DNA from: a virus
IMG/VR virus record: IMGVR_UViG_3300019889_000007
Span: 24,763 to 88,762 of that record
Reading direction: 5' to 3' (one strand)
DNA length: 64,000 nt
Position 1 is the first letter of the stretch. Each line of letters starts with the position of its first letter. Under the pieces are notes generated by a model. That model was not told the origin of the DNA. It searched no databases and saw only the letters and a list, made by a program, of their open reading frames with translations. Below are positions 4,043 through 29,748 of the stretch, one piece after another. Both the position numbers and the translations under genes were made by a program.

Positions 4043-5169
4043 ACTCAGTGCAGTCGGTCCACCACGCTTCGCAGGAGGCGTGGCGGGACCTCACCACCGC
4101 CCGGACGTTCGATCCGTTCGAGATCCATGTGACGTCTTTGGAGTCCTGCCTGCGGCAGTTGCATTTTCGCGCCACAGGCGAGGCGATCACCGATCCCGAT
4201 ACCTCAACGCCGTCGATGAAGATCGCCGCACACGAGGGCACCGCGATCGATGCCCTGTACGTCCCGTATTTCGCCGCCGCGTGGGCCAAAACCGACCCGA
4301 CATTGGAGGTCGTGCACCCGCACTTCAAGTTGCGGCACGCGCGCGACGGCGTGGCGATCATCGGGGAGTCCGATGTGGTGGCGTTCGGTCCGGACAACAC
4401 CGCGCAGGTGTGGGATCTGAAAACCTGCGAGTACAGCAAGTGGGACGCGTGCGCGGCCGGGGAAATCCCGGACGCGCACGCGTTGCAGGTCATCTGTTAC
4501 GCCCGGCTGATCGAACTTCAGACCGGGCGCCGGGTTACGGACATGCACCTGTACTACCTCGACCGGTCAGACCCCGAGGCGTACAAGGATTTCCGCAGGT
4601 CAGCCCGGTACTTCACGACCAGTCAGACATTCACTGATGCGGATCGTCAGATGGCCGATACACTGTTCGACCGAGTGTTTTCCGCTGCCAAGAGCACCGC
4701 CGAGGCTCCCCGATGGTTCGGGGACGAACGGGGGAAGATCAGCAGCCGGTTCTCGCCCTGCCACAAGTGCCTGTGGCAGACGCGATGCCTGGGAAAACCG
4801 GTTCACGGCCAGGACGCCACCCTGGCCGTCGACGTTGAGGCCGCCGGTCAACTGATCGGTGGCTGGGCCGAGGCACGCACCGACAAAGCGGAGGCGGTCG
4901 CCAAGCTCAAGGACTTCATCCGGGCCGAACTGGACAAAAACAAAAAGTCCAAAGTAGAAGGAAGGTTGAAGGAACTTGTCATAGCCTTGAACCTGGACCG
5001 CGATTTCTACGACGCCGGAAACGGCACCGTCTTGGAACTGTACGACAAACGCGGCGGCGAGATCAAAGACCAGGAAGCCATCGAAAAGATCCTCAGCGAT
5101 CTGGGAATCAAAATCCCCACCAAGCCCCGAGCGGACTCGCCAGCACTGCGCATCCGCAAGGACACATAA
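4039..5169 (+). CDS. PD-(D/E)XK Cas4/RecB-like exonuclease
   Basis: GESDVV...WDLKT, Q-x3-Y motif, N-terminal Cys plus CxxC-x5-C cluster; ATGA overlap with recT-like gene. Confidence 0.85.
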   Translation: MNSVQSVHHASQEAWRDLTTARTFDPFEIHVTSLESCLRQLHFRATGEAITDPDTSTPSMKIAAHEGTAIDALYVPYFAAAWAKTDPTLEVVHPHFKLRHARDGVAIIGESDVVAFGPDNTAQVWDLKTCEYSKWDACAAGEIPDAHALQVICYARLIELQTGRRVTDMHLYYLDRSDPEAYKDFRRSARYFTTSQTFTDADRQMADTLFDRVFSAAKSTAEAPRWFGDERGKISSRFSPCHKCLWQTRCLGKPVHGQDATLAVDVEAAGQLIGGWAEARTDKAEAVAKLKDFIRAELDKNKKSKVEGRLKELVIALNLDRDFYDAGNGTVLELYDKRGGEIKDQEAIEKILSDLGIKIPTKPRADSPALRIRKDT

Positions 5170-16099: not shown

Positions 16100-16407
16100 C
16101 GGTCAACCAGCCGTGTGCGTGTGGTTGTCATCCGGTTCAGGTCCAGCGACGGCTGTTCCCGTCGTTCGCGAATTTTCCAGTCCTTCACGCGGCGACACAG
16201 CAATCGATGCTGGCGGCCAGGAAGGTGGCGATGGAAACGTATGACCATCGGAACCTGGTGTTGGCGTATCGGTTCGCCTGCTATTCGTTGACCTACCTGC
16301 GGCAGCATGGTGAAGGCAGTGAGGCGGCTGTTAAGGAGTTGGTCTCGGTCAAGGAACGGCTGGCGACGTTGATTGTTCGCGACTATCTGGAATGGCTTTT
16401 CGCATGA
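16096..16407 (+). CDS. Hypothetical protein
   Basis: ATGA overlaps at both ends. Confidence 0.6.
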   Translation: MTVNQPCACGCHPVQVQRRLFPSFANFPVLHAATQQSMLAARKVAMETYDHRNLVLAYRFACYSLTYLRQHGEGSEAAVKELVSVKERLATLIVRDYLEWLFA

Positions 16408-17543
16408 CGACGGCAGAGGATGGTCTGCCCGAGTTGCCCGATCTTGACGTGGGTGGCGGTGAGGTTCTTTCGGGCGAGATCGTTGTCAGCTCGGTCGGGA
16501 AGGTGGTTGCTCGACGAAGGGTGTCGGATCGTCCTGAGCCGCCGAATGCGCTTAAGGCGTTGACGGCGGCGGGGTATGACCTTGTTGTGTCGGGGGTCTC
16601 GGCCAACACACTGCGGGCGTATGAGCGGTGTTGGGGTCAGTTCAATGAGTATCTGGATTCGCGGAAGCTGGGTCGGTTGGATATTGCGCCGACACCGGCG
16701 ACGGTGATCATTGACTGGATGGCGTTGATGCTTCGTACGCCGACCAAGCAAACGAAGATTCCGATGGCGCCATCGTCGGTGTCGCAGATGTTGGCTGCGA
16801 TCCGGTACAAGCATCGTGAGATTCAAGGTTCGGATAAGACGTGGACGGTGCCGCAGTCGTTGTTGCTGACTCAGGCGTATCGGGGGTATTGCCATCAGTG
16901 GCTCGATATGGGGCATCGGGTGCAACAGGCGGAACCGACGTCGTGGGAGGATCTTGAGGTTTATGCGGCGGGGATTGATACGTCGTCCCCTCGGGGTAAG
17001 CGTGATCTTGCGTTGATCTTGTTGTCGTTTTGGATGGCGGCGCGCGCTTCCGACATCAGTGCTTTGTGGACTTCTCCGGGTGTGGACAACATCCGGTTGA
17101 ATGCGACAACGATGCAGTTGTTCCTGCCGTATTCCAAGACGGACCAGGCGGCTGCCGGGCAGTGGGTGACAATACCGAAGTTTGACAAGAATCCTCCATT
17201 GTGTCCTGTCAGATCGGTGCAGGCGTGGCGAGCGGAACTGCTGCAAGTTCGGCCCGAGGCCGGTAAATTGTTCGTGGAGATGCCTGCCGGTTTGCGTTCG
17301 GACTTCTACGCTAAAGGATTTCCTGGCCTTCAGCCGATGGCCGTCAGCGACGTGACGAAACGCTGGGCGAGACGGTTGGGGTTGGGTCAAAGATCGGCGC
17401 ACTCTCACCGTCGAGGTGCTGCGACGCGGGCTCACGAAGCTGGGGCGGATATTCCGCAGATCAAAAAGCTCGGTCGTTGGAAATCTTCTGACACGGTCAT
17501 GAAGTACATCGACGACCAGGCGTTTGAACACCCGTTGGCTTAG
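16404..17543 (+). CDS. Tyrosine recombinase, Cre-like subfamily
   Basis: RDLALILL...ARASDI, SKTDQ, CPV, HSHRRG, GRWKS...Y catalytic set. Confidence 0.93.
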   Translation: MTTAEDGLPELPDLDVGGGEVLSGEIVVSSVGKVVARRRVSDRPEPPNALKALTAAGYDLVVSGVSANTLRAYERCWGQFNEYLDSRKLGRLDIAPTPATVIIDWMALMLRTPTKQTKIPMAPSSVSQMLAAIRYKHREIQGSDKTWTVPQSLLLTQAYRGYCHQWLDMGHRVQQAEPTSWEDLEVYAAGIDTSSPRGKRDLALILLSFWMAARASDISALWTSPGVDNIRLNATTMQLFLPYSKTDQAAAGQWVTIPKFDKNPPLCPVRSVQAWRAELLQVRPEAGKLFVEMPAGLRSDFYAKGFPGLQPMAVSDVTKRWARRLGLGQRSAHSHRRGAATRAHEAGADIPQIKKLGRWKSSDTVMKYIDDQAFEHPLA

Positions 17544-23855: not shown

Positions 23856-24007
23856 GCCGTCAGGGATCTGAGAAAAAATTGACCGGAGACACGAACCGCT
23901 CTGCCGCTGAGCTAACTGACGCTTACACGAAAGTCTTGGATTCGAACCAAGGACCTGTCTCTTGAAAGGAGAAGTAGCTCCGGTCGTCGCACCAGTGCCC
24001 TGACGGC
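23856..24007 (-). ncRNA. yrlA: YrlA-type Y RNA #1 (permuted tRNA mimic; Glu UUC-like loop)
   Basis: Terminal stem GCCGUCAGGG/CCCUGACGGC, GGUGCGA...UUCUC Ro-site region, UACUUC, T-arm CUUGG-UUCGAAU-CCAAG preceding D-arm UAGCUCAGCGGCAGAGC; adjacent to rsr. Confidence 0.9.
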
Positions 24008-24014
24008 ACAAGCC

Positions 24015-24173
24015 GCACATCCCGAGAAAAAAGTTGCCGGAGAACACGGTGGCTTTGGCCGCTCGCCCACACCGGCCTGTTACGGACCGGCGGCAGGATT
24101 CGAACCTACGAGACCTTTAGGGTCACCCATTTGTCAAGAATGAAGTAACTCCAGCTATCGCACCGGGATGTGC
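24015..24173 (-). ncRNA. yrlA: YrlA-type Y RNA #2 (Ser UGA class-II tRNA mimic)
   Basis: Terminal stem GCACAUCCCG/CGGGAUGUGC, GGUGCGA, UUACUUC, variable arm GACC-CUAAA-GGUC, T-arm GUAGG-UUCGAAU-CCUGC, closed acceptor-like stem, D-arm GGCGAGCGGCCAAAGCC. Confidence 0.9.
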
Positions 24174-24232: not shown

Positions 24233-24388
24233 GTCGCGCCCACCGAGAAAAGAGAATCGACCGGAGTTGAGAAACTTGCTAGCGGCCTGCCAATTAACCG
24301 ACAGTAGACTCGCGAAGGGTCTACCGGCAGGACTCGAACCTGCACAACCAACGGAAGTAACCCCAGCCTTCACACCGGCGAACACGAC
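24233..24388 (-). ncRNA. yrlA: YrlA-type Y RNA #3 (no anticodon-like arm)
   Basis: Terminal stem GUCGUGUUCGCCG/CGGUGGGCGCGAC, GGUGUGA, UUACUUC, T-arm GCAGG-UUCGAGU-CCUGC, closed stem CGGUAGAC/GUCUACUG, D-arm GGUUAAUUGGCAGGCC. Confidence 0.88.
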
Positions 24389-24395
24389 AACACTC

Positions 24396-24424
24396 ATAGT
24401 AGCCATGTCGTGTCTGCCTGTCAG
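24396..24424 (-). promoter_or_regulatory. Sigma70/HrdB-type promoter for the Y RNA-rsr operon
   Basis: CTGACA-N17-TACTAT, with 7 nt between the -10 box and the 5' G of Y RNA #3. Confidence 0.75.
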
Positions 24425-24472: not shown

Positions 24473-24990
24473 ATGAAACCTCGTCTGGCCGTGACCATAT
24501 CGTCCTGACCGCGTTCCTGATCGCCTGTGGCGCACCCAACCGCGACGTCAGAAACGAAGGCCCCCAAGCCACCGACCCTGCCGACACCTCCAGTGCCACC
24601 ACGGCCGCCGCCGATACTGACGCGGCCCTCGGCGAAACCCTCAACATCGACGAGGAAGCCCGCGTCACCGTCACCGAAGTCGACACGTCAGTGGAGTCGG
24701 ACAACCAGTTCGATGAGCCTCGCTACGGTGGCTACGCCTCCGCCGCCGTCGAAGTCGAAGCACTCGAATCGATGCTGGTCACCGTGACCGACTTTAAACT
24801 GATCGCCAAAGACGGCACTGCCTACAAATCCATGCTGTTCGTATACGGGTTCGACGGAGTGCTCGAACATCAGACCATCAAAGCCGGGCAGAAAGCCTCG
24901 GGCCTGGTCATATTCGATGTCGACCCGAAAAACCTCGGCGACGGCGGCCAAATTGAATACGACGGCTCCGCGTACTGGAGCTTCAAATAA
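24473..24990 (+). pseudogene. DUF4352-like lipoprotein, 1-nt frameshift in signal peptide
   Basis: SD plus MKPRLAVT frame stops at 24508; adding 1 nt near 24498 gives MKPRLAVT(I)IVLTAFLIA-C lipobox joined to the DUF4352-like domain (GQKASGLVIFDV). Confidence 0.65.
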
Positions 24991-28703: not shown

Positions 28704-28886
28704 CTAGCAGCCCAGCTCGGTACGAGCAGCCTGCTTCAGGGCCTCGAAATCGCCAGCGGTCAAGGTCATGACCTGCGAAGTGTGCTTGCTGTCCCGCACG
28801 CGCGGAACACCATCGAGAAACCCGATCTCGACACAGTTGTTTGAAGGCTGGCTGCTCCGGCTTGCTTTCTTCCATTCAGTGTTCAT
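28704..28886 (-). CDS. DUF397 (Scr2-like) protein
   Basis: WKKASRS....NCVEI.....VRDSK. Confidence 0.92.
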   Translation of the reverse strand: MNTEWKKASRSSQPSNNCVEIGFLDGVPRVRDSKHTSQVMTLTAGDFEALKQAARTELGC

Positions 28887-29748
28887 TCAGATACTCCTTG
28901 AGTGTTATGCAGTGTTCAGCAGTTCCATCGAACATTCGTTGGAATTGATCTGCTGCGATCGGATGAAGGCTGGCGTCAATATATCGAGCCGACCTGCCAC
29001 CTTCTTCGTACACTGTCGTCGGATCATCGGGGTTGTCAAACTCCAAGATAATGAACCGGCGTTGAATGCATGGATGCGCCCCGAGCCACGGGGGGATCAC
29101 CGATATTGTGACATTTGGGTGCTCAGATTTTTCGATCAAGTGGTCGATCTGTTCCTTCATGACCTCTGGTCCACCGACCAGGTTCTCCACAGACGCGAAA
29201 CTCATCAAGTAGTTGATGACCAGGCCATCATCGACCCGTTTCATTATCTTCTGAGTGCGTCCCATCCGAGATTCCACGAACGTCGTGATGTCGGGCCTTG
29301 GGAGGTTGTTGGCCAACATCGTGTTTCGGACGCTACGAAACACCGCCTCTGTGTAGGATTTTGTTTGAAAGTATCCTGAAATGAGGGATTCCGAGTGCTC
29401 ATGCATCGTTGATGCAATCTGTTCAAGTTCCAAAAGCGTGAACATCCCCTGTGTGAACGCCCCGTCGATGAGCCGTTCATACGATGGTTTGATACCCGTC
29501 TGGACCGCCTGATTCTTCAGTTCGTCGCGTAGTGTGCCCGAGCCGATTCCGTAGAGATCCAACAGTGCCGAGACAGTGCCGACTTTGACTTTGGCTTTGC
29601 CGATACCGTTTTCGATGGTGTTCAGCGTGGATGTGCAGCACACTCCGGACTCTGCGACATCTTCTTGTGTTTTGCCAGCTTCTTTGCGCAATCGCTGCAA
29701 CGTGCGTCCGAGCTGGCGCTTATGCATTCGTGGTTGTGGCGCGGTCAT
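28876..29748 (-). CDS. XRE HTH-DUF5753 (Scr1-like) regulator
   Basis: RQLGRTLQRLRKEAG HTH; LISGYFQTKSY; PNVTISVIP; paired with DUF397. Confidence 0.92.
   Translation of the reverse strand: MTAPQPRMHKRQLGRTLQRLRKEAGKTQEDVAESGVCCTSTLNTIENGIGKAKVKVGTVSALLDLYGIGSGTLRDELKNQAVQTGIKPSYERLIDGAFTQGMFTLLELEQIASTMHEHSESLISGYFQTKSYTEAVFRSVRNTMLANNLPRPDITTFVESRMGRTQKIMKRVDDGLVINYLMSFASVENLVGGPEVMKEQIDHLIEKSEHPNVTISVIPPWLGAHPCIQRRFIILEFDNPDDPTTVYEEGGRSARYIDASLHPIAADQFQRMFDGTAEHCITLKEYLNEH

Follow-up and report, generated by a model that had tools for sequence, protein, structure and literature searches.

Locus and RNA elements

The window analysed here, a stretch of 64,000 nucleotides, is part of the IMG/VR virus record IMGVR_UViG_3300019889_000007, which is 88.8 kb long, has 61% G+C and is estimated to be about 62% complete. 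On the minus strand of the window three YrlA-type Y RNA units are located upstream of rsr, the gene of a Ro60 orthologue. The middle unit (24016-24171), which lies about 200 nt upstream of the TROVE open reading frame and on the same strand, is the main subject of this study. Besides the stem expected to bind Rsr, this RNA appears to carry a complete transfer RNA (tRNA) module in permuted order, including an anticodon-like arm and a long variable arm of the class-II type. The elements of the middle RNA and the surrounding features are listed in Table 1, in which A2 and R1 refer to the family alignment and the covariance model described below.

Table 1. Elements predicted in the middle Y RNA and other features of the window; elements of the tRNA-like part are numbered as in tRNA
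Feature	Coordinates	Strand	Remarks
YrlA-type RNA with complete class-II-shaped permuted tRNA module (predicted)	24016-24171	minus	R1 67.1 bits, E 2e-13
Lower Rsr-binding stem, 5' strand GCACAUCCCGG	24163-24173	minus	Pairs with 24015-24025; homologous helix 95% paired, with compensatory changes in A2
Conserved internal-loop motif UGCGAUA, then upper stem 5' strand GCUGGAG	24149-24162	minus	Upper Rsr-binding stem, 24155-24149 with 24042-24036, covaries in A2
Conserved junction UUACUU	24143-24148	minus	UACUUC invariant in A2
Anticodon-like hairpin: CAUU (24142-24139), loop CUUGACA (24138-24132), AAUG (24131-24128)	24128-24142	minus	U33 at 24137, UGA at 24136-24134, C37 at 24133; the family hairpin, which covaries, has the same position
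GG, positions 42-43	24126-24127	minus	Pairs with CC 24048-24049, completing the anticodon stem
CC, positions 27-28	24048-24049	minus	Directly after A26; partner of GG 24126-24127
Variable region: U, GACC-CUAAA-GGUC, UC (C48)	24110-24125	minus	Hairpin GACC 24124-24121, CUAAA 24120-24116, GGUC 24115-24112; single sequence only
T arm GUAGG-UUCGAAU-CCUGC	24093-24109	minus	
Sealed acceptor stem of 7 bp in tRNA register, with C73:G-1 in addition and the loop CGUAACA	24070-24092	minus	CGCCGGU 24092-24086 with GCCGGUG 24076-24070, extra pair C 24085-G 24077; compensatory changes at 7/7 homologous pairs (A2)
U8 G9 (24069-24068), D arm GGC-GAGCGGCCAAA-GCC, G13.A22, A26	24050-24069	minus	D arm GGCGAGCGGCCAAAGCC at 24067-24051
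3' half of Rsr-binding stem: junction GUGUU, CUCCGGC, U-rich bulge, UCGGGAUGUGC	24015-24047	minus	
rsr (Ro60 orthologue, TROVE domain), 551 aa	22160-23815	minus	Pfam PF05731, E 2.6e-15; directly downstream of the three RNAs
Copy nearest rsr, class-I-shaped YrlA	23862-24000	minus	R1 86.9 bits, E 7e-18; Rfam YrlA 24.2 bits
Copy nearest the promoter, YrlA without anticodon-like hairpin	24237-24383	minus	R1 56.8 bits, E 4e-11; Rfam YrlA 18.1 bits
Promoter-like site upstream of the first Y RNA	24396-24424	minus	Consensus match 9/12; 1 found vs 0.2 expected; pattern match only
Integrase-family gene	16392-17543		
Helix-turn-helix (HTH)/DUF5753 regulator	28876-29748		

In the middle RNA the T arm precedes the D arm in the 5' to 3' direction and the closed acceptor stem joins the two, as in YrlA. 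The D arm has a 3-bp stem, an 11-nt loop, G13.A22 and a possible G15:C48 pair. No helix or tertiary-pair position of the RNA is disrupted. A first-pass annotation of this stretch had described the hairpin with U33 and UGA at 24136-24134, the variable-arm hairpin, the T arm, the sealed acceptor stem and the D arm, and each of these was found where it had been placed. Also the junction UUACUU (24148-24143) was recovered, but its description as UUACUUC followed by CAUU had counted one C twice, this C being the first base of CAUU.

Assignment to the YrlA family

The comparative material consisted of 80 viral and 80 actinobacterial loci encoding Rsr relatives, together with six GenBank actinophages. 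The Rsr loci in viral contigs were gathered by a protein-alignment scan, a single-protein scan having given no matches. A regular-expression parse of the loci produced 237 non-redundant YrlA-like units, and 36 diverse units, none of them from the window, made up the alignment A2 and the covariance model R1. The family structure of A2 was 95.1% paired and had compensatory changes in 26 of its 37 pairs. Its covariation score was 0.434, compared with 0.136 for shuffles and 0.06-0.10 for slid controls.

When the 64-kb window was searched with R1, exactly three RNAs were found (86.9, 67.1 and 56.8 bits), the best match outside the Y RNAs reaching 13 bits (E 0.29). The middle RNA has GUGCG 16 nt before UAC, and the same spacing of GYGCG is present in 149 of the 237 family units. 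As far as can be read from sequence and position, the middle RNA is a YrlA-type Y RNA with the Rsr-stem motif of the family beside rsr; the Y RNA identity given to it by the first-pass annotation is upheld by the adjoining rsr and by the R1 score.

A predicted composite anticodon arm

The best perfect hairpin directly after UAC had a 7-nt loop in 98 family units, compared with 12.7 expected from shuffles. In these loops C32 was present in 85%, U33 in 90%, U36 in 71%, A37 in 80% and A38 in 88%, and the hairpin was followed by a variable loop of 4-6 nt. The inner three pairs of this cis hairpin covaried: pair 30-40 was C-G 63, U-A 17 and G-C 15 times, and pair 31-39 was A-U 55, U-A 23 and C-G 17 times. 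Positions 42-43 were found to pair across the D arm, with the two bases that follow position 26, and this was also seen on A2. Pair 27-43 was Watson-Crick in all of the 66 non-redundant units (C-G 55, G-C 11), and so was pair 28-42 (C-G 45, U-A 19, G-C 1, A-U 1); the rival pairing of 42-43 with the invariant UU would make 11 U.C mismatches in the same units. RNAalifold alone, when run on A2, missed both the hairpin and the 27-28/42-43 pairs, which were revealed by explicit counting.

Since both outer pairs are kept in 66/66 units, hairpin-type YrlAs appear to retain a complete anticodon arm with a 5-bp stem and a 7-nt loop. The composite nature of the stem implies that the Rsr-binding stem emerges from its 5' strand, between positions 28 and 29. 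When the 62 units that allowed a rearrangement were joined at 28/29, ARAGORN reported a tRNA in 62/62 of them at 115% of its threshold and in 57/62 at 120%, while the same units with a shuffled hairpin gave 5/62 and 0.8/62, respectively. The copy nearest rsr has the loop CUUUCAA with a Glu-like UUC triplet and a compensated G27-C43 pair in place of the C27-G43 of most family members; a reading of the hairpin in cis only would turn its 27-43 into a U.C mismatch.

The middle RNA is in the register of the family, with GUGCG, the UU spacer and GG 24127-24126 facing CC 24049-24048. It differs from the family in having one extra cis pair, giving a 6-bp anticodon stem, a variable region of 16-17 nt with its own hairpin, and the G13.A22 D arm. 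Because it has the family hairpin and, separately, a hairpin of the variable-arm type, the family hairpin cannot be its variable arm, and the presence of two separate hairpins favours the anticodon-arm reading for the whole class.

The loop consensus of hairpin-type YrlAs was CU-NN-U-AA, and the commonest triplets were CUU, GUU, GCU, CAU and GAU. U36 stood together with A37 A38 in 71% of the family loops, which is the pattern of tRNAs reading codons that start with A, and a partner that reads this type of loop may be involved. At L043 (about 4225-4400) another YrlA was found to have two hairpins in the stretch from UAC to the T arm; it has a 7-nt loop with CAU, the arm CCCU-GUUGG-AGGG and a class-I GCUC/GAGC D arm, features that no real isotype combines.

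The rearranged fold

In the analysis script, the middle RNA was brought into canonical order: the segment that begins with the acceptor 5' strand and ends with A26 was placed before the one that begins with the anticodon hairpin and ends with the acceptor 3' strand. ARAGORN folded the rearranged RNA into an 86-nt class-II cloverleaf, tRNA-Ser(tga). It has U8 G9 and a standard T arm; its acceptor, D and variable-arm stems have 7, 3 and 4 bp, respectively, and UGA stands in a loop of 7 nt. This prediction was kept up to 114% of the default threshold, or up to 116% with the join at 28/29, and 20 real class-II tRNAs of Micromonospora and Streptomyces were kept up to 114-122%. After shuffling of the anticodon-like hairpin, only 1.5% of the versions reached 114%. 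The variable-arm hairpin by itself carries less weight as evidence, since 6.4% of the shuffles had a centred 4-bp Watson-Crick hairpin. At the level of predicted secondary structure the class-II tRNA mimicry is real, and the permuted class-II layout of the first-pass annotation is borne out by the long variable arm, G13.A22, the possible G15:C48 pair and the UGA loop.

Comparison with tRNA isotypes

The rearranged RNA had been expected to prefer Ser in isotype models. As a stand-in for the tRNAscan-SE isotype models, nhmmer profiles of 20 Ser, 16 Leu and 5 Tyr tRNAs were used, and these classified 41/41 real tRNAs correctly in leave-one-out analysis. The expected preference did not appear: the rearranged middle RNA scored nearly equally with all three profiles (Ser 14.4-15.1, Leu 14.1-15.0 and Tyr 13.0-14.0 bits), and its global identity was about 0.6 to Ser, Leu and Tyr alike. 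In the positive control, 13 Streptomyces chromosomal YrlAs reached 20-42 bits with Leu, 7-16 with Ser and 6-10 with Tyr, so isotype-specific class-II YrlAs exist and can be detected by the profiles.

The variable region, counted as 17 nt in this comparison, ends in UC and has a length within that of real Ser tRNAs; the lengths in real tRNAs were 14-20 nt in Ser, 12-14 nt in Tyr and 11-17 nt in Leu, the last ending in U. Of the 11 D-loop positions, 10 agreed with real actinobacterial Ser and Tyr tRNAs, and the loop was unlike that of Leu; the class-II D arm (3-bp stem, G13.A22, G15 for C48) is present but shared with tRNA-Tyr. In architecture, as far as these sequence features go, the middle RNA fits Ser better than Leu or Tyr. 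The loop has C37, whereas a purine occupies this position in 218 of the 220 tRNAs from the same loci, and all nine real Ser(UGA) tRNAs have the loop CUUGAAA or UUUGAAA in place of CUUGACA. Also the acceptor stem (GCCGGUG/CGCCGGU, C73, closed by a loop) is not Ser-like, its mean identity to real Ser acceptors being 0.43, and the middle RNA has G11:C24 where the real Ser tRNAs compared have C11:G24.

The anticodon-like hairpin, the variable arm and the D loop had been taken as three independent Ser features. This independence was not sustained, since the hairpin is family-wide and carries many triplets, and the D arm is also present in short-armed YrlAs. The D loop AG[CU]GGCC occurs in 21 family units, and the G13.A22 D arm with this loop was found in four YrlAs that have short variable loops and non-Ser triplets. 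Loop triplets vary widely in the family, and the Ser-type GCU occurs on short-armed bodies. The long variable arm and the G13.A22 D arm occur together only in the middle RNA among the 237 family units. Altogether, a specific tRNA-Ser identity is not supported by the tests.

A recent copy of a host tRNA-Ser was rejected as a source: BLAST searches with the half from the hairpin to the acceptor against five actinobacterial genomes matched T arms only, and the RNA is thus not a recent copy of the tRNA-Ser of those hosts. Class-II tRNA-like genes beside rsr were seen in Catelliglobosispora koreensis (L114:803-1767, upstream of rsr), where ARAGORN finds three: one Ser(gct) and two unusual ones, an 81-nt Ser(tga) and a Tyr(gta), which had only 14.1 and 11.3 bits on the profiles.

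Genomic setting

The Rsr of the window was 42% identical to Ro-like proteins of actinophages and 54% identical to its best database relative, and its nearest relatives (42-54% identity) are from actinobacteria or actinophages. The source is a temperate phage of soil actinobacteria, and its three tandem Y RNAs are probably transcribed together with rsr. In the copy nearest the promoter only 13 nt separate UAC from the T arm.

The Y-RNA region was identical in soil metagenome DNA contigs from two studies, and these contigs therefore provide no natural variants for a comparison of the pairings. Two metagenome contigs have a 7-nt insertion, CGGCTGC, behind window position 24500, outside the Y RNAs. 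No matches were obtained when the phage collection was searched with the nucleotide sequence of the Y-RNA region.

A protein of the RNA ligase family (PF09414, 47.3 bits) is encoded on the plus strand about 2.3 kb before the start of the window (G000:C1:22420-23013), and the Ro-like gene of Streptomyces phage Kela has an RNA ligase gene as its immediate neighbour. Neither RtcB nor a CCA-adding enzyme was found in the phage fragment, which at about 62% completeness does not allow their absence to be extended to the whole phage.

Alternative explanations

The reading that we prefer, and to which we give a probability of roughly 0.7, is that the middle RNA is a YrlA-type Y RNA with a complete permuted tRNA of class-II shape and a composite anticodon stem, and with no Ser-specific identity supported by the tests. 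The 5' and 3' ends would pair to form the conserved Rsr-binding stem, and what remains would be a complete tRNA in circularly permuted order, in which the acceptor stem of 7 bp is sealed and a D arm, a T arm and a long variable arm of class-II type are present. The anticodon stem would be composite, positions 27-28 coming from the 3' half after A26, and the other pairs and the 7-nt loop from the 5' half. From the literature on YrlA we infer that the RNA may dock on Rsr and make its tRNA-shaped part available to partner proteins that bind tRNA. The middle copy would be Ser-shaped through its class-II arm and its UGA loop, in a family whose loop triplets vary freely, and the Ser-shaped features look like such lineage-specific variation and not like proof of tRNA-Ser identity.

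Several observations weigh against this reading. The Rfam YrlA model (RF02553) gave the middle RNA only 14.8 bits (E 7.2) and its gathering score of 69 was not reached. The YrlAs of the GenBank actinophages were likewise under the gathering score (25-47 bits), and the R1 matches combined with low Rfam scores suggest a YrlA of an actinobacterial and phage subclass that is poorly covered by the Rfam model. In the published description, hairpins of this kind were read as class-II-like variable loops (Wang et al. 2018, bioRxiv 10.1101/312249). The tRNA-like fold is not favoured thermodynamically: the fold with the hairpin had an energy of -56.7 to -57.0 kcal/mol, that with the rival pairing -57.1 and that with neither -55.5, all within 1.6 kcal/mol, and the unconstrained minimum was -63.2 kcal/mol. 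No close orthologue was found, the nearest Rsr being 54% identical, and the variable arm and the 4-bp cis stem of the middle RNA consequently have no covariation support of their own. Finally, UGA on a class-II body with G15:C48 agrees with Ser, and the chance that a Ser triplet would fall on a class-II-shaped member was estimated at about 0.1-0.15, which is suggestive of a Ser-specific role but not decisive.

The UGA loop, the variable arm ending in UC, a D loop identical to that of Streptomyces Ser(UGA) at 10/11 positions, the naming of the rearranged RNA as tRNA-Ser by ARAGORN and the unique combination of a long variable arm with the G13.A22 D arm would all suit a module selected for recognition as tRNA-Ser, for example as a ligand of seryl-tRNA synthetase or as bait for tRNA-Ser-cleaving nucleases. 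Such a functional mimic is nevertheless unlikely, because neither the profiles nor global identity prefer Ser, C37 stands where 99% of real tRNAs have a purine, and the acceptor, base 73, G11:C24 and the 6-bp anticodon stem are not those of tRNA-Ser. The free variation of the triplet, with Ser-type GCU on short-armed bodies, and the joining of a CAU loop with a long arm in L043, unlike any real isotype, also speak against it. Of the Ser derivation or mimicry proposed by the first-pass annotation, the fit of the UGA, the variable arm and the D loop thus stands, and the profiles, C37, acceptor, base 73 and anticodon stem do not support the rest.

On the unrearranged sequence ARAGORN reported a tRNA-Ser(tga) at 24084-24167, and two further explanations start from this call. 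If the locus were a degenerating relic of a tandem tRNA-Ser dimer or of a duplicated Y RNA, drifting and without a role, the call would mark the remains of the first copy; the presence of CCGGUG in both the 5' stem and the acceptor 5' strand and the published model deriving YrlA from dimeric tRNA transcripts agree with this. We regard it as improbable, as the native call was kept only to 100% of the threshold compared with 114-116% for the rearranged RNA, the complementarity of the sequence upstream of UAC to the acceptor 3' strand was in the whole family equal to that of shuffled controls (5.39 vs 5.39), all helices and tertiary-pair positions have been preserved, and the sequence is the same in the soil metagenomes of two studies. 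An ordinary tRNA-Ser(UGA) gene serving phage translation is very improbable. The RNA as encoded had no match to the Rfam tRNA model (RF00005) at the gathering score of 29 bits, its best match in the tRNA clan being tRNA-Sec with 20.9 bits of the 47 required. In the native fold the D loop has 4 nt and lacks G18 G19, the first acceptor pair is mismatched, and the 5' strand consists of the conserved Rsr-stem motif. The anticodon-like loop has C37, and the Y-RNA model accounts for all 156 nt.

Implications of a proposed permuted tRNA with an anticodon arm

We know of no partner protein that reads the tRNA-like half of bacterial Y RNAs. The covariation in 66 RNAs places the hairpin that was published as a variable loop as a true anticodon arm. 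If this is true, the candidate partners would include proteins that read whole tRNAs together with the anticodon loop, such as synthetases, loop-modifying enzymes and anticodon nucleases. The natural variants, i.e. short-armed, Leu-like, Ser-shaped and no-hairpin copies in one operon, form ready constructs for comparison.

According to the first-pass annotation, the RNA could not be charged for want of a free CCA end. This does not hold as a general argument, since in vivo the YrlA of Mycobacterium smegmatis is cut open by RNase P and has CCA added to it (Chen et al. 2014, PMC4201824), and with such opening and CCA addition charging would be conceivable. A more far-reaching and quite speculative possibility, which we consider improbable, is that hairpin-type YrlAs are real permuted tRNAs held on Ro60. 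Opening by RNase P and addition of CCA would turn them into two-piece tRNAs with a working anticodon arm, and the class-II copy might be bound or charged by seryl-tRNA synthetase or be cut in place of tRNA-Ser. The phage would then gain a Ro60-linked sensor of, or decoy against, attack on tRNAs, for example by anticodon nucleases of the host.

The 5' halves of Y RNAs of this kind are entered as tRNA genes in annotated phage genomes. In GenBank, tRNA-Arg(tct) of Gordonia phage VanLee (L009:2204-2275) is the 5' half of a YrlA that has 121.6 bits with R1 at L009:2202-2342, and tRNA-Arg(cct) of Streptomyces phage GiJojo (L006:2269-2343) is the 5' half of a YrlA with 59.7 bits at L006:2263-2412. 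Both features lie just upstream of Ro-like genes, and their scores with the Rfam tRNA model (26.9 in L009 and 24.1 in L006) are under the cut-off. In Streptomyces phage BRock a match to the manA RNA (L011:4579-4742; 49.7 bits vs the gathering score of 55.2) sits between tRNA genes downstream of the Ro-like gene.

Comparison with known YrlA RNAs and permuted tRNAs

Like the YrlA of Salmonella Typhimurium (RF02553; Wang et al. 2018), the middle RNA is located beside rsr and has an end-paired Rsr stem, a T arm 5' of the D arm, a closed acceptor stem and conserved tRNA tertiary-pair positions. Unlike the Salmonella RNA, which is described as having no anticodon loop and a short variable loop, it has both a 7-nt loop and a long arm, and its Rsr stem leaves from within the anticodon stem. 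A class-II YrlA had been thought undescribed by the first-pass annotation. Wang et al. (2018), who described YrlA without an anticodon loop, had however already likened its long variable loops to class-II tRNAs. Long variable loops in YrlA are thus known, and the main value of the present data is the complete anticodon arm that, on sequence evidence, is exposed in a large YrlA subclass.

The algal and archaeal circularly permuted tRNA genes to which Wang et al. (2018) refer are similar in that the acceptor starts out as a closed loop, with the ends pairing near the anticodon stem; these RNAs are matured to working tRNAs by splicing enzymes not reported in bacteria.

Streptomyces chromosomal YrlAs (L168 from S. 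scabiei, L107 and L139) share with the middle RNA a class-II body and a long variable arm. Unlike it, they are tRNA-Leu-like in sequence and have no anticodon loop, all 5 bp of their anticodon stem joining one half to the other. Leu-like YrlAs were seen in L107, L129, L139, L141, L150, L154, L157, L159, L161 and L168, at about 2280-2450 in each. The Streptomyces RNAs have the D arm GCGGAA..GACGC, a variable arm of the type UGNNNN-GAAA-NNNNGU and a covarying 5-bp anticodon stem.

The YrlAs of M. smegmatis and mycobacteriophages (PMC4201824) are, like the middle RNA, actinobacterial, located upstream of rsr and provided with a closed acceptor stem of 7 bp. A hairpin with the loop CUUCUAA directly after UUAC is implied by the 5' probe published for the M. 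smegmatis RNA, and the post-UUAC hairpin was labelled V, the variable arm, by Chen et al. (2014, PMC4201824). In comparison to this RNA, the middle RNA has in addition the G13.A22 D arm and another hairpin, which is of the true variable-arm type. The middle RNA also shares its register, UACUU, composite stem, 7-nt loop and sealed acceptor stem with the hairpin-type YrlAs of actinophages and prophages (Gordonia phage VanLee, L009:2202-2342; IMG/VR loci L012-L091). These have variable loops of 4-6 nt and mostly GCUC/GAGC D stems, whereas the middle RNA has a long arm, an extra cis pair and C37.

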